DNA of 42,072 bases, from the sequence record PQ571306; one strand, written 5' to 3'. Numbering within the stretch: position 1 is the stretch's first letter; each line of letters begins with the position of its first letter. Below the pieces are notes generated by a model. It was given only the letters and a program-made list of their open reading frames with translations, was not told where the DNA came from and did no database searches. The position numbers and the translations under genes are program-made. Source of the stretch: Shigella phage phiSD1. Shown one piece after another: positions 12,118-33,879 of the stretch.

Positions 12118-12432
12118 TTATAATTCCTTATATTGTTGGGGTATGTGCTTACTATAATAGTCTGCTATTAGGGTGTCAATCTGTTTGAACGAACCGACGA
12201 CAAAAACATTCGCGCCACGTTTACGCATCCTATCGTGCTCCCGTAACTGGTGCGGGTCTGGCCTCGTGCTTTCGTCTTTCTTAACCTCGACAAACCAGAC
12301 GATGCCGCCGGGGAGGATTACCAGCAGGTCAGGAGCGCCCGCTCTATTTTCGTACGACAATTTGCGTACGAGGCCCCCGATGGCCTCGAATCGCTCTTTT
12401 GCGTATTTCTGAATCTTGCCCTCCGGGGTCAT
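12118..12432 (-). CDS. VRR-NUC domain nuclease (PD-(D/E)xK)
   Basis: PDLLVILPGG...VWFVEVKK motif; start set to ATG overlapping upstream small ORF stop. Confidence 0.65.
   Translation of the reverse strand: MTPEGKIQKYAKERFEAIGGLVRKLSYENRAGAPDLLVILPGGIVWFVEVKKDESTRPDPHQLREHDRMRKRGANVFVVGSFKQIDTLIADYYSKHIPQQYKEL
12151..12179 (-). promoter_or_regulatory. Sigma70-type promoter TTGACA-N17-TATAGT (leftward), inside the 3' end of the VRR-NUC gene
   Basis: Consensus -35 and near-consensus -10 read on minus strand. Confidence 0.5.
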
Positions 12433-12581
12433 GAGCGCAGAACCCAAGTTATAAACGCTCCGCCTAGAATGGCAACACCGGCAAACTTAAAGAACAGGCC
12501 GTAACAGAACATAGCAGCTATTCCCGCACCGAGTAACAGTGCGAGCATGGTTACTATCGACCAGAATACAAACATTGTCAT
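12429..12581 (-). CDS. Small membrane protein (50 aa)
   Basis: Hydrophobic 50-aa ORF, ATGA-coupled to neighbours; hand-derived. Confidence 0.3.
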   Translation of the reverse strand: MTMFVFWSIVTMLALLLGAGIAAMFCYGLFFKFAGVAILGGAFITWVLRS

Positions 12582-12667
12582 AACACGCATCCCTCACGTT
12601 TCGTGTGCTCAATCCCGCAGCGCGGGCAGATTCGGCAGTCTTCTTCGTAGAACCAGTAAATTTTCAT
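12578..12667 (-). CDS. Small Cys-rich (zinc-ribbon-like) peptide (29 aa)
   Basis: DCRICPRCG...C pattern; coupled overlaps both sides; hand-derived. Confidence 0.25.
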   Translation of the reverse strand: MKIYWFYEEDCRICPRCGIEHTKREGCVL

Positions 12668-12795
12668 TCCAGCACCCACAGATAAATTGCGATGAACATA
12701 CCCAATACAGCGACCATCATGCCGTATTGGCCCTCGTGACAGTAGACACCGGCGGCGAATCCCGCCAGTACCGCGATAATCAGTTTACTTGGCAT
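12664..12795 (-). CDS. Small membrane protein (43 aa)
   Basis: Hydrophobic ORF starting 11 nt inside DNA polymerase 3' end; hand-derived. Confidence 0.25.
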   Translation of the reverse strand: MPSKLIIAVLAGFAAGVYCHEGQYGMMVAVLGMFIAIYLWVLE

Positions 12796-14965
12796 AACGT
12801 TTTAACTCCTGCCCTTCCGCTACAAGAGGGAAACCTTCCGCCCATTCCGGTAATTCGCACATCAATCGCTCAAGCTCTGCGACATTGTATTCCGGTAAAT
12901 CCGGTGTCTCGCAGATAATTTCATCGTGTACGTGAAGTACAATCGGGTAGCCGTTTGCCTCTACGTTCAGCAGCGCATTGGCCAGCAAATCACGGCACAG
13001 CGCCTGAGTGCAGTTTTCCACGAGTTTACCGGAATATGTGTACTGGAAGCCCCACTGCCGTGTTAACTGGTTTTCGCCCTGGTACTTGATGCGCACGTTA
13101 GTAGACACCTTTCCGTCTTCGTCGGTCTCTTTCGACACGCTCAATCCGACACCTGGATAAGACATAACGCGGCCCGACGGCAACGTCATGCGCAACCACC
13201 AACCGGCGACTTTGTTGCCGTTGTTGTCTGTCTCTACGTTGCGCGAAAACTTAACTCCCCGCGGCCCCGCGGTGAACTCTTTGCCCGGATTGCGGATAGC
13301 CGCCATAGCCGCATCTTCAATATCACGCCAGAAAGCTACTGTTTCCGGGTGTGACTCACGCCACATACGCTTGATAGCGTCGCAGGTACGCCACACTTTC
13401 TTATCAAGAATATAAGATGGTCGGTCATCCTTTTCACCTGGACGTGGTGGTCGCTTGGCTTCCTGAATACGCGCCCACTCATATCCACGTGCGGTAGCAG
13501 CCCAGATGTGGTCGGGGAAAGTCCCGTCCATTGTTTTTGCCATATCAACAAGGTCAAGGCCGAGGTTCTTGGCGAACTGTACGAATGCGCCGACACCACC
13601 CGCGTAGCCAAGTCCCAGTTCACAGGCCTTACCAATCTGGCGTAAGTCTTTACGTTCTTTCTTAATGTAATCCGGCTCCATGCCGAACATCTTGCCTGCG
13701 GTTACGCAGTAAATATCCAGCCCGGCACGGAACGTATCAAGCGCGGTTTCTTCGCCAGCCAGCCACGCCAAACCGCGACCTTCAACGTTAGAGTAATCGG
13801 CGACGACAAACTTATGCCCTGCCTCTGGGATAATGCAGCTACGCACTGTTGACGCCGTTAGTTTGGCTACATCAAAACGGCGATGCGCACGGCCTTTAAG
13901 TAGCGCGGAAATACCTTTATCCAGTTCCCCGTCGTGATAGTACCCGCGCGCCAGGTTCTGCGGCTGGAAGCCTTTACCTGCAAACCGTAACGTACGCTTC
14001 GCCCCGCCATACTGGATGCAACCTCGGCGGCGGTCGTCAGACGAGCGACCTAACAGCAGCGGGTTATATTTCGTTGACGCCGTGGACGCGGCCCCGAGGC
14101 GCATTTCGATAATCATGCGGGCATCGTCCGGTAAATCATCGTCCGCCAGCAGGTCGTTAAGCGTAGACTTCTGTGCGTTGTGGATTCGGTGCGCAGGGGC
14201 AAGTTCCCGCAGAATCGGCAGAAAGTCTTTACCGGTAAGCGAGCCGCCGTATTTGCGTTGGGCTTCTTCCTGTAACTGTGCTTTGTGTTTCTCCACGGCT
14301 TCAATCGCGGCTTCCGCCAGTGCAACGTCAACCTTAAACCCGCGGTCATTGATTAACTGGTCCAGTTCCAGTACACGGTCCTCGAATTCTGAGTTACCCC
14401 AACGCGGCAGCTTATGGAACACTTCACGCATCGCAGTGATGTCGCTCACGGCGTACTTGATGAACAGCGCCCACTCGTCCGGGTGTGTTTCAGCGGTGTA
14501 ACGGCGGATTTTGTAGTTCTTCGGCGTCGGTTTAGAGAAACGCTGAATCAGCGCCTTTCCGCGTTTATCTTTCGCGTTGTCTGCAGACACGCCCAGCACT
14601 TCGCACAACGCATCAAGTGACCCTGGCAGCGCGTGACGGAACGCCCAAATCATCGTATCAATGGTGTTGCTTACCGGAATATCAAAGCCCCAGCAGTGTT
14701 TCATGATGAGCCTATCGAACATTGAGCCGTTATGCCATACCATCTTTATGCGGCTGTTGGGCTTAACCAAGCGGCGTAGCGCGCGGTGCAAATCCCCCGG
14801 CATGTCGCTGCCGTCTGTGCAATCCCATACCTGCACAGGCTCGTCATTAAAAGCATAGGTACAGATAAGCACTTCGGTAGTTGGATGTTCGGCGTAAGCA
14901 TAGGAGCCGACTTTCTTCAAATCGGCTTCGGAGAATGTTTCAAAGTCTAAGAACAGGTAACCCAT
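12785..14965 (-). CDS. Family A DNA polymerase with N-terminal 3'-5' exonuclease domain
   Basis: Exo I motif DFETFS, Pol A motifs (DYSNVEGR, RQIGKACELGLGYAGG, HVHDEI). Confidence 0.85.
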   Translation of the reverse strand: MGYLFLDFETFSEADLKKVGSYAYAEHPTTEVLICTYAFNDEPVQVWDCTDGSDMPGDLHRALRRLVKPNSRIKMVWHNGSMFDRLIMKHCWGFDIPVSNTIDTMIWAFRHALPGSLDALCEVLGVSADNAKDKRGKALIQRFSKPTPKNYKIRRYTAETHPDEWALFIKYAVSDITAMREVFHKLPRWGNSEFEDRVLELDQLINDRGFKVDVALAEAAIEAVEKHKAQLQEEAQRKYGGSLTGKDFLPILRELAPAHRIHNAQKSTLNDLLADDDLPDDARMIIEMRLGAASTASTKYNPLLLGRSSDDRRRGCIQYGGAKRTLRFAGKGFQPQNLARGYYHDGELDKGISALLKGRAHRRFDVAKLTASTVRSCIIPEAGHKFVVADYSNVEGRGLAWLAGEETALDTFRAGLDIYCVTAGKMFGMEPDYIKKERKDLRQIGKACELGLGYAGGVGAFVQFAKNLGLDLVDMAKTMDGTFPDHIWAATARGYEWARIQEAKRPPRPGEKDDRPSYILDKKVWRTCDAIKRMWRESHPETVAFWRDIEDAAMAAIRNPGKEFTAGPRGVKFSRNVETDNNGNKVAGWWLRMTLPSGRVMSYPGVGLSVSKETDEDGKVSTNVRIKYQGENQLTRQWGFQYTYSGKLVENCTQALCRDLLANALLNVEANGYPIVLHVHDEIICETPDLPEYNVAELERLMCELPEWAEGFPLVAEGQELKRYAK

Positions 14966-14980
14966 TATTTTCGACCCTTA

Positions 14981-15005
14981 GTAAAAAGGCCCAATGAAGG
15001 GCCTT
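14981..15005 (-). terminator. Rho-independent terminator / attenuator between SSB-like gene and DNA polymerase
   Basis: aaggccc-loop-gggcctt hairpin followed by T-run on minus strand. Confidence 0.55.
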
Positions 15006-15024
15006 AGTTAAATTGATTCAGATA

Positions 15025-33289: not shown

Positions 33290-33290
33290 T

Positions 33291-33320
33291 AAAAAGCCCC
33301 GCTATGGGGCTTTATTTTTA
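33291..33320. terminator. Bidirectional rho-independent terminator (gcccc-gctat-ggggc)
   Basis: Stem-loop with AAAAA upstream and TTTATTTTT downstream. Confidence 0.65.
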
Positions 33321-33385
33321 TATGAACATCGCGGTGATAGCCGCAGCCGATACCCACAAAACAAAATAAAACATCACACTATTTG

Positions 33386-33730
33386 TCATTTGCATTTCTC
33401 GTCGTATGTTTGTTGTAACTGCGACAGACGATTACCGGCTGTCATCTCGTCCATAGAAGGCCCGGCGCCCGTGTCCATAAAGAACAGCGGAACAATCAGG
33501 AATGCGCCTGTAACACCGAGTACAACGTTAGTACCTATTTGCTTATTAACACGGTGCGTAGCGTTGGCTTGAGCTTGTTTTGTCGTGGCGATTCTCGATA
33601 GTAACTGATTACATGTTGCCGTTGTATCCCCTGCCTGATAAACCTGTAAAGCCGGGTCTGGCAACGACCTTACGCAACCACTCAAACAAACGGCTACAAC
33701 ACCTGCTACTGCTAATTTAATATATTTCAT
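33386..33730 (-). CDS. Lipoprotein (lipobox LSGC) with an additional hydrophobic segment
   Basis: Signal peptide ending AVCLSGC; hydrophobic stretch NVVLGVTGAFLIVPLFF. Confidence 0.6.
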   Translation of the reverse strand: MKYIKLAVAGVVAVCLSGCVRSLPDPALQVYQAGDTTATCNQLLSRIATTKQAQANATHRVNKQIGTNVVLGVTGAFLIVPLFFMDTGAGPSMDEMTAGNRLSQLQQTYDEKCK

Positions 33731-33828
33731 AGTTCACCATTACCCGTGTCAATGTCACCAATACCGCTACAAGCCCAAAGAAACATCACCGCATCAACTG
33801 CAATTACTACTGAAATAACGACTAACAT
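33727..33828 (-). CDS. Small transmembrane peptide (33 aa), coupled to the lipoprotein gene
   Basis: RBS ggggagg; stop overlaps lipoprotein ATG; hand-derived. Confidence 0.3.
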   Translation of the reverse strand: MLVVISVVIAVDAVMFLWACSGIGDIDTGNGEL

Positions 33829-33852
33829 GACGGCCTCCCCGGTTCGATAGAA

Positions 33853-33879
33853 TGAATAGTACCCTATTATATTGGGGTG
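33853..33879. promoter_or_regulatory. 27-bp promoter-like element, copy B (identical to 113-139)
   Basis: Reverse complement TATAAT lies 37 nt upstream of the TM-peptide ATG. Confidence 0.4.

Follow-up and report, generated by a model that had tools for sequence, protein, structure and literature searches.

A dispersed palindrome at the promoters of phage phiSD1 is a probable operator with a Cro-like candidate binder

Layout of the phiSD1 genome

The 42,072 nucleotides of sequence record PQ571306, which were analyzed in full and are called the window below, represent a complete Kagunavirus genome, that of Shigella phage phiSD1 (subfamily Guernseyvirinae; a virulent E. coli siphovirus). We describe here a 14 base pair (bp) palindrome, AATAG-N4-CTATT, that recurs at predicted promoters throughout this genome, and a 71 amino acid Cro-like protein that is a candidate for binding to it. 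A megablast search returned genomes of 83-96% identity, among them SZH-1, BUCT823 and K1ind3. Synteny with annotated relatives divides the window into a rightward tail arm, a leftward replication arm, a long rightward series of small early, lysis, packaging and head genes, and two leftward inserts (Table 1). Bases 1-141 are identical to bases 41932-42072, a terminal duplicate of 141 bp. Relatives of phiSD1 have been called strictly lytic (PMC9825357), and no integrase, CI-type repressor or lysogeny module was found in the annotated relatives or in Pfam scans.

Enrichment of the palindrome

A first-pass annotation, made from the sequence alone, had proposed a genome-wide family of promoters with a GAATAGT/ACTATTC core and had suggested that a second DNA-binding factor recognizes it. 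The family is real: TGAATAGT or its complement has 8 exact matches against 1.14 expected (positions 113, 15736, 17852, 17896, 21320, 22589, 33853 and 42044), and none of 100 dinucleotide shuffles reached 8. Because of the terminal duplication, the matches at 113 and 42044 are one site, as had been suspected, leaving 7 unique sites. The unit underlying these matches is the palindrome AATAG-N4-CTATT, which has eight exact copies in the unique genome against 0.04-1 expected; with up to one mismatch allowed there are 12 matches against 1.01 expected (0 of 100 shuffles). Among all gapped palindromes of 5+5 bases enumerated in the genome it ranks first, at about 218-fold over composition.

In the 4,094 bp of intergenic DNA we found 7 exact copies, against a mean of 0.0065 and a maximum of 1 in 2000 dinucleotide shuffles of that same intergenic DNA. 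First-order Markov simulations served elsewhere in the analysis as a null model. The remaining exact copy, at 12156, overlies the final codons of a gene, within a near-consensus promoter. The sites are dispersed, with 8 exact and 3 one-mismatch copies between positions 115 and 33959, and at 5 of 8 promoter-associated sites the palindrome is followed by 'CTATTATA'. Two outcomes had been named that would speak against the motif, a lack of enrichment over shuffled intergenic sequence and a loss from related phages. The intergenic counts show the reverse of the first, and as to the second, the motif is kept at syntenic promoters in the Kagunavirus phages Bas73 and K1ind3 and in the Jerseyvirus phages skrot and LSPA1.

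The individual sites of the first-pass list largely stood. The perfect inverted repeat GAATAG-N4-CTATTC at site 22565 was found as described (22580-22595). At site 12151 the sequence reads TAATAG and not GAATAG as claimed, but the full palindrome AATAGTCTGCTATT is present there within a TTGACA-N17-TATAGT promoter. One exact palindrome, at 22265, was missing from the list.

Placement of the palindrome at predicted promoters

Every palindrome site except 22265 overlaps the core of a predicted sigma70-type promoter, at differing offsets, and the sites fall into three classes (Table 1). At class A sites the palindrome, centred at about -18.5, occupies the spacer and reaches the first base of the -10. 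Three of these promoters (12179-12151, 15751-15723 and 17867-17839) are the three best sigma70 matches in the 9.3-28.2 kb interval. The operator at 12156 lies within the 3' end of open reading frame (ORF) 12118-12447, and its promoter is predicted to drive 11862-12116 and the helicase arm.

The four class B sites share a longer block in which the palindrome lies across the -10 and is centred at about -12.5; read on the strand opposite to TGAATAGT, this block is TTGCAC/TTGCGC-N17-TACTAT. At each of them a Shine-Dalgarno sequence and a start codon follow 25-31 nt past the palindrome (42018 leftward, 21350 rightward, 22625 rightward and 33828 leftward). The promoter at site 115 is predicted to drive ORF 41692-42018 leftward from an ATG at 42018, which equals position 87. 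An earlier reading of the four sites with GGGGTGTGCAAG downstream, as '-35-less late promoters' with a conserved transcribed motif, was rejected in favor of the opposite-strand TTGCAC-N17-TACTAT promoters because of these start codons and because the cassette is deleted together with its cargo in K1ind3.

The orientations previously assigned (leftward where the motif is in the spacer, and rightward at 21296 and 22565, where it spans the -10) agree with this reconstruction. The further statement that the motif occupies a fixed position holds inside each promoter class but not between classes.

Class C comprises two weak sites centred on a -35. The one at 25242 has a conserved Jerseyvirus counterpart, and Cornellvirus has TTGACT-centred sites of like form. 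The other, at 33946, is abutted by a perfect everted palindrome, ACTATTCGAATAGT (33938-33951). This element, which does not vary in Kagunavirus and Jerseyvirus, consists of the GAATAGT heptamer in the opposite arrangement. It lies immediately 5' of the head-operon promoter's -35, and its centre is near -41.5 relative to the predicted start. At the orphan site 22265, a 12-bp tandem repeat, TGGTGTAACAGG, present in 3.1 copies (22227-22263), spans the stop codon of the DUF551 gene and runs straight into the palindrome.

Table 1. Predicted operators and promoters, candidate regulators and arms of the phiSD1 genome, in window positions
Feature	Position	Direction	Promoter relation or basis	Class and remarks
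Operator AATAGTACCCTATT	115..128 (= 42046-42059 in terminal duplicate)	leftward promoter	TTGCAC(144-139)-N17-TACTAT(121-116)	B
Operator AATAGTCTGCTATT	12156..12169	leftward promoter	in spacer of 12179-12151, TTGACA-N17-TATAGT, 11/12 consensus	A
Operator	15728..15741	leftward promoter	in spacer of 15751-15723, TTGACA-N17-TATATT, 11/12	A; would drive single-stranded DNA-binding protein and DNA polymerase genes
Operator O1	17844..17857	leftward promoter	in spacer of 17867-17839, TTGACA-N17-TATAGT, 11/12	A
Operator O2, AATATGGTACTATT (1 mismatch)	17888..17901	leftward promoter	17911-17882, TTGATA-N18-AATTAT	weaker fourth of A
Predicted Cro-like gene promoter	17856..17883	+	TTCACA-N16-TAAAAT, 10/12	bracketed by O1 and O2
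Operator AATAGGATACTATT	21312..21325	rightward promoter	across -10 of TTGCAC(21296-21301)-N17-TACTAT(21319-21324)	B; would drive gene with GTG at 21350
Operator inside GAATAG-N4-CTATTC	22581..22594	rightward promoter	across -10 of TTGCAC(22565-22570)-N17-TACTAT(22588-22593)	B; would drive gene with ATG at 22625
Operator AATAGTACCCTATT	33855..33868	leftward promoter	TTGCGC(33884-33879)-N17-TACTAT(33861-33856)	B; would drive cargo ORFs 33727-33828 and 33386-33730
Orphan exact palindrome AATAGGTTACTATT	22265..22278			between stop codon of 22046-22234 and terminator 22292-22313
Weak site ACTAGTTGACTATT (1 mismatch)	25242..25255	rightward promoter	centred on -35 of TTGACT(25247-25252)-N17-TATATT(25270-25275)	C
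Weak site AATAGTTGACTTTT (1 mismatch)	33946..33959	rightward promoter	centred on -35 of TTGACT(33951-33956)-N17-TAAGCT(33974-33979)	C
Gene, 71 amino acid HTH_3 (XRE/Cro-type) protein	17932..18147	+		proposed operator-binding repressor
Gene, 56 amino acid HTH_17 (excisionase/MerR-like) protein	20694..20864	-		rival binder
NinH-like protein	27568-27804		Pfam	third DNA-binding protein
Tail arm	252-9380	rightward	synteny with annotated relatives
Replication arm	about 9300-20900	leftward	synteny with annotated relatives
Small early genes, lysis, packaging, head genes	21350-40071	rightward	synteny with annotated relatives
Two inserts	33386-33828 and 40269-42018	leftward	synteny with annotated relatives

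Evidence that the palindrome is an operator

In AATAG-N4-CTATT, which leads the ranking of gapped palindromes in 5 genomes, the centres of the two half-sites are 9 bp apart. Between classes A and B the palindrome shifts by 6 bp relative to the -10, and in Jerseyvirus by another 3 bp. Since an element read by polymerase would not move in this way, and an occluding operator can, we take the palindrome to be an operator. The left half-site of class A lies in the spacer, where sigma70 reads no bases, and the hexamers of these promoters are already near-perfect. At syntenic promoters of Kagunavirus and Jerseyvirus, whose proteins are about 50-85% identical, the half-sites have stayed the same, and the changes are found in the N4 and between the -35 and the palindrome. 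In a set of 31 distinct sites drawn from 5 genomes, the information content of the central N4 is 0.3-0.9 bits. It is thus very probable that AATAG-N4-CTATT is the operator of a phage protein, and every computational test agrees with the earlier suggestion that sequence conserved beyond the needs of sigma70 implies a second DNA-binding factor. A role of the palindrome as an RNA hairpin was considered and rejected, the stem consisting of 5 A/U-rich pairs upstream of the predicted start.

A Cro-like protein as the candidate binder

Pfam identified three DNA-binding proteins, of the HTH_3, HTH_17 and NinH-like types (HTH, helix-turn-helix). The protein encoded at 17932-18147 has an HTH_3 domain (E = 1.2e-12), and its nearest solved relative is 434 Cro, which is also 71 amino acids long (E = 4.9e-7 over residues 6-68; 42% identity). 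Its predicted five-helix fold is best matched by 2cro, with a TM-score of 0.72-0.78. The operators of 434 Cro are 14-bp dyads in which the outer half-sites of 4-5 bp are conserved and the centre is free; this is also the geometry of AATAG-N4-CTATT.

The Cro-like gene is the sole rightward gene in the replication arm, is divergent from that arm, and has a terminator-like hairpin at 18136-18156. The right end of O1 overlaps the -35 of its predicted promoter, and O2, 44 bp from O1, covers the predicted transcript start; judged from these predicted elements, O1 and O2 around the promoter are a classic autoregulatory layout. From the enrichment, symmetry, placement and conservation of the sites, together with the kind of protein that the candidate is and its agreement with operator variants from lineage to lineage, we infer that the protein would bind the palindrome, most probably as a dimer, and would repress in a timed manner; we place the probability that it is the AATAG-N4-CTATT binder at roughly 0.6. 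Both small HTH proteins of the genome had been put forward as candidates, and it is this one that fits, much better than the HTH_17 protein.

The likeness to phage 434 extends from the protein, a single-domain five-helix HTH_3 protein like 434 Cro and the DNA-binding domains of the 434 and P22 repressors, with 434 Cro the best match by both sequence and fold, to the DNA. As at 434 OR/OL, the phiSD1 operator is a 14-bp dyad with outer 5-bp half-sites and a non-conserved centre, it overlaps promoter cores, and it occurs at the promoter of the regulator itself. The first glutamine of the 434 Cro recognition helix is conserved in the phiSD1 protein, and the half-site has an outer A. The HTH domain, the dyad operator and its overlap with predicted promoter cores are thus those of a Cro/CI-type pair. 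The differences are that phiSD1 is virulent, that no CI-type repressor partner, integrase or tripartite OR/OL switch was found, that its operators, single apart from the O1/O2 pair, stand at about 8-11 promoters genome-wide rather than being clustered in an immunity region, and that the half-site is AATAG where that of 434 is ACAA. By this analogy the phiSD1 system would work like Cro but is not a lambdoid switch.

Dispersed operators are known from P1 C1, L5 gp71 with its stoperators, and the phiC31 repressor with its inverted repeats, in each of which one small regulator serves many scattered operators at or near promoters. The 8 exact and 3 one-mismatch sites of phiSD1 share this dispersal, and site 22265 resembles a stoperator-like position inside a transcription unit. 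Those proteins are temperate immunity repressors, and the P1 and L5 sites are asymmetric, whereas phiSD1 is lytic and its protein is Cro-sized and not a temperate immunity repressor. Also among the fold matches are the C proteins C.AhdI, C.BclI and C.Esp1396I, small XRE-type HTH dimers with palindromic C-boxes at their own promoter and timed autoregulation; they differ in acting on one operon through paired adjacent boxes in both activating and repressing modes, in contrast to the many promoters and mostly single boxes of phiSD1.

Comparison among lineages

In K1ind3 the recognition helix of the Cro-like protein and the operators are identical to those of phiSD1, and the HTH_17 helix has changed. 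In Jerseyvirus the Cro-like helix reads SQSLITH against SQGAINQ, the operator core is shared, and 10 of 12 sites have T as the base flanking the operator, where 20 of 23 Kagunavirus sites have G; here the HTH_17 helix is unchanged. Cornellvirus encodes a Cro-like homolog of 39% identity as the first gene of its rightward early operon, ahead of the helicase-primase gene, and carries a palindrome AWTAS-N4-STAWT, in the form TATTA(G/C)-N4-(C/G)TAATA, mostly at intergenic promoter slots and once beside the gene of the Cro-like homolog. HTH_17 was not found in Cornellvirus by tblastn and Pfam scans of the neighboring genes. The Eiauvirus phage eiAU has 5 copies of GTTAA-N6-TTAAC (13208, 14853, 27756, 28099 and 42905), an enrichment of about 250-fold, abutting TATAGT -10 hexamers, and in the slot of the Cornellvirus Cro-like gene it has a homologous gene (24258-24467) for a 69 amino acid Cro/C1-type HTH protein whose function is unannotated. 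In Dhillonvirus neither a Cro-like homolog nor a palindrome family was found. Compared at the sequence level, the Cro-like protein is concordant with the operator variants in every lineage comparison, and HTH_17 is discordant in three.

Several points weigh against this assignment. Although 4 of 7 recognition-helix positions differ between the Cro-like proteins of Kagunavirus and Jerseyvirus, the AATAG core is common to both genera, so the case for covariation rests on the flanking bases and the more distant lineages; of these, the Cornellvirus palindrome (5 copies per genome against about 0.5 expected) was a pattern defined post hoc on one genome. The phyletic range of HTH_17 is exactly that of the AATAG-N4-CTATT form. 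The 31 sites were gathered by pattern, so that the information content of their half-sites is inflated. Site 22265 has no convincing promoter nearby and no counterpart was seen in the relatives examined. The direction of the class B promoters is not proven, because the opposite strand has a -10-like TATATT that faces the late operons. At site 115 this is TATATT at 129-134, facing the tail operon; three class B sites have TATATT or TATGTT without a -35 on the other strand, and an automated choice of the best hexamer pair was ambiguous, either direction scoring 7-8/12. Class B sites may thus conceivably be bidirectional and fire also toward the tail and head operons. Finally, RNA-seq of phage K1B4 has a 'specific DNA binding' gene peaking in mid-infection and an HTH gene early (PMC12645636), at time points that are coarse and span multiple cycles, so that promoter classes are not assignable from them.

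Alternative explanations

The 56 amino acid HTH_17 protein, expressed early, could instead bind the palindrome as a repressor or as a spacer-binding activator. It matches HTH_17 at E = 3.3e-7 and has weak, sub-threshold matches to the MerR family in Pfam, its homologs occur only in Kagunavirus and Jerseyvirus (442 records), the same taxa as AATAG-N4-CTATT, it is 80-90% identical between the two genera, much like the operator core, and the 4 early genes in the K1B4 RNA-seq data include an HTH gene that, from its place in the gene order, is probably this one. We nevertheless consider it an unlikely binder. Its helix differs in K1ind3 (SPMTLNRW against TRRTLNNW) while the operators are identical, it is unchanged in Jerseyvirus while the operator flank differs, and Cornellvirus, without HTH_17, keeps a related palindrome in the same promoter slots. 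The protein has no dimerisation module, and proteins of the Xis/AlpA type mostly bind direct repeats or act as monomers, which weighs against it. The predicted promoter of its own gene, that of the helicase-primase/HTH_17 operon (20925-20897, TTGATT-N17-TATACT), has no palindrome. MerR-like activation from the spacer was rejected on spacer length, the class A and TTGCAC-type spacers being an optimal 17 bp and not the 19-20 bp, containing the dyad, that are typical of MerR; nor does the 56 amino acid HTH_17 protein, with its sub-threshold MerR matches, qualify as a MerR protein with a coiled-coil dimerisation helix.

That no extra factor is involved, and that the sites are duplicated promoter cassettes in which divergent -10 hexamers overlap (TACTAT, with TATATT/TATAAT opposite), is if anything slightly less probable. 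In its favor, about 33 nearly identical bases are common to sites 115 and 33855, the cassette moves together with cargo genes, TACTAT and TATAnT hexamers resembling a -10 do overlap the two half-sites, and the tail-junction site of Jerseyvirus is a symmetric pair of back-to-back promoters with the palindrome between them. Against this, the one-way promoters of the replication arm keep the left half-site (T)GAATAG in a spacer with no -10 there on either strand, and the symmetric G and C at positions 5 and 10 are invariant though no -10 consensus requires them. Moreover, the flanks and N4 have diverged across sites and genera and the half-sites have not, and related lineages have different palindromes in the same slots.

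The same family has been published for two close relatives. It was reported in fBC-Eco01 as 7 sites found by PHIRE (PP1-PP7), labeled 'Phage RNAP promoter' with the consensus tgAATAGTa-ccTATTat-T, and in VB_EcoS-Golestan as 7 PHIRE-listed phage promoters (Table S4 of that report); TGAATAGTACCCTATTATAT of the PHIRE lists is identical to window positions 113-132. The dyad symmetry, the sigma70 hexamers and the Cro-like gene go unmentioned in both papers. The label would make the 20-mers promoters for a phage-encoded or phage-modified RNA polymerase, which accords with the recovery of the family by PHIRE and with the location of sites at transcription-unit starts, but we regard it as highly improbable. 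No RNA polymerase domain was found in the ten largest proteins or in the annotation of relatives (the two of these ten proteins without Pfam matches are syntenic with tape measure and tail proteins), near-consensus sigma70 hexamers are already present at the sites, and dyad symmetry together with shifts in register of 3-6 bp relative to hexamers and start codons is incompatible with a promoter of a single-subunit polymerase or a sigma element. The published label describes the repeat but not its nature, and the sites are mislabelled. In the searchable literature, no paper was found that reads the repeat as an operator or connects it with the Cro-like gene; papers on Jerseyvirinae/Jerseyvirus promoters and the BASEL paper yielded nothing on regulation, and a search with the sequence string returned unrelated papers.

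A host transcription factor can hardly be the binder: E. coli and Salmonella share most regulators, with which the sharing of the motif between Kagunavirus and Jerseyvirus is compatible without specifically supporting it, yet Cornellvirus and Jerseyvirus, two phage genera of the one host species Salmonella, carry different palindromes, the double operator site sits at the gene of the phage regulator itself, and we know of no E. coli regulator with this consensus.

Proposed mechanism and significance

In the scheme that we propose for the Cro-like repressor, host sigma70 RNA polymerase would fire the strong phage promoters first. The Cro-like protein would then build up, bind its 14-bp operators and, from positions at the spacer and -10 or from weaker copies at the -35, occlude RNA polymerase, an effect that we infer from the overlap of the operators with the spacer, -10 or -35. 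The replication, early-rightward and cargo units would be turned down, as would the Cro-like gene itself through O1 and O2, and the operator-free helicase-primase/HTH_17 operon and the late promoters with weak operators would be spared.

A broader version, in which the Cro-like protein would be a dual-function temporal switch of this virulent siphovirus subfamily, shutting early, replication and cargo promoters and favoring late transcription, with a leader gating the late genes, is doubtful. It would require that the protein act on late promoters either by binding the half-site cluster at the head-operon promoter, around ACTATTCGAATAGT, or by freeing the opposite-strand -10 at bidirectional cassettes. 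Late expression would also be gated by an ultra-conserved structured leader and terminator (about 33986-34190), like lambda PR'/6S RNA/tR'.

Few therapeutic and biocontrol phages of E. coli and Salmonella are isolated as often as the Guernseyvirinae (Kagunavirus, Jerseyvirus and Cornellvirus). Hundreds of their genomes are available, but their transcription programme is essentially unstudied and genome papers label the repeat as a promoter for a polymerase that the phage does not have. The repeat itself was already known from fBC-Eco01 and Golestan, and what is added here is the operator reading. It offers a regulon map that separates the controlled units from the escaping helicase-primase/HTH_17 operon, a testable candidate regulator, and compact, portable promoter-operator parts for engineering of these small phages. 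The lineage-specific pairs of operator and Cro-like protein suggest, from sequence comparison, that a Cro-type shut-off may have been kept without lysogeny in virulent phages.

Cargo slot, leaders and other features

The cargo slot (33386-33900) lies between the terminator of the Hoc-like gene and the head-operon promoter. Wherever the class B cassette at 33853-33900 occurs, a leftward cargo gene occurs too: phiSD1, Bas73 and skrot carry three unrelated ones, each with this same cassette, and K1ind3 is without both cassette and cargo. The slot resembles a moron-type module whose regulated promoter is conserved.

Non-coding DNA at 33851-34202, upstream of the spanin gene and head operon, includes the TTGACT-N17-TAAGCT promoter and is the most conserved DNA relative to Jerseyvirus skrot. 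The five best-conserved 150-bp windows fall in it (95-97% identity, the genome mean being 75%), and it matches 178 phage records, mostly unannotated there, at 90-100% identity. The leader is about 190 nt long and forms a stable fold (-78.8 kcal/mol, z = -3.7). At its end, just before the spanin gene, stands a hairpin, GCGCCCCGC-TTTAT-GGCGGGGC, followed by a T-rich tail (about 34157-34190); in Bas73 this hairpin carries a C-G to T-A change that is compensatory. A small ORF in the leader is argued against by one-nucleotide indels. Rfam gave nothing in the window at gathering thresholds and a match at chance level only for the leader, and the Cornellvirus leaders were not alignable to it. By analogy with lambda PR'/6S RNA/tR' the conserved leader could be a terminated leader under antitermination, or it could be a small RNA. 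In the leader of the tail operon (about 165-215) a block, GAAAAGCGGGTGGTTCCCGCCTGGCGCA, shows no variation across Kagunavirus and Jerseyvirus; within it a GC stem of 5 bp closes a 5-nt loop (GCGGG-TGGTT-CCCGC), with no T tract after it.

The minus-strand ORF 22323-22535 is probably spurious, being Ser/Ala-rich and of low complexity with no family matches; the plus-strand ORF 22384-22557, which overlaps it, combines a good ribosome-binding site with a helical-looking sequence and fits the all-rightward arm. In the gap of ~450 bp between the HTH_17 operon and the rightward early promoter, positions 21101-21250, inside the poorly supported ORF 21089-21301, are 91% identical to Jerseyvirus and contain a strong hairpin (21203-21223). 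Judged from this conservation, the stretch could be a regulatory or RNA element.

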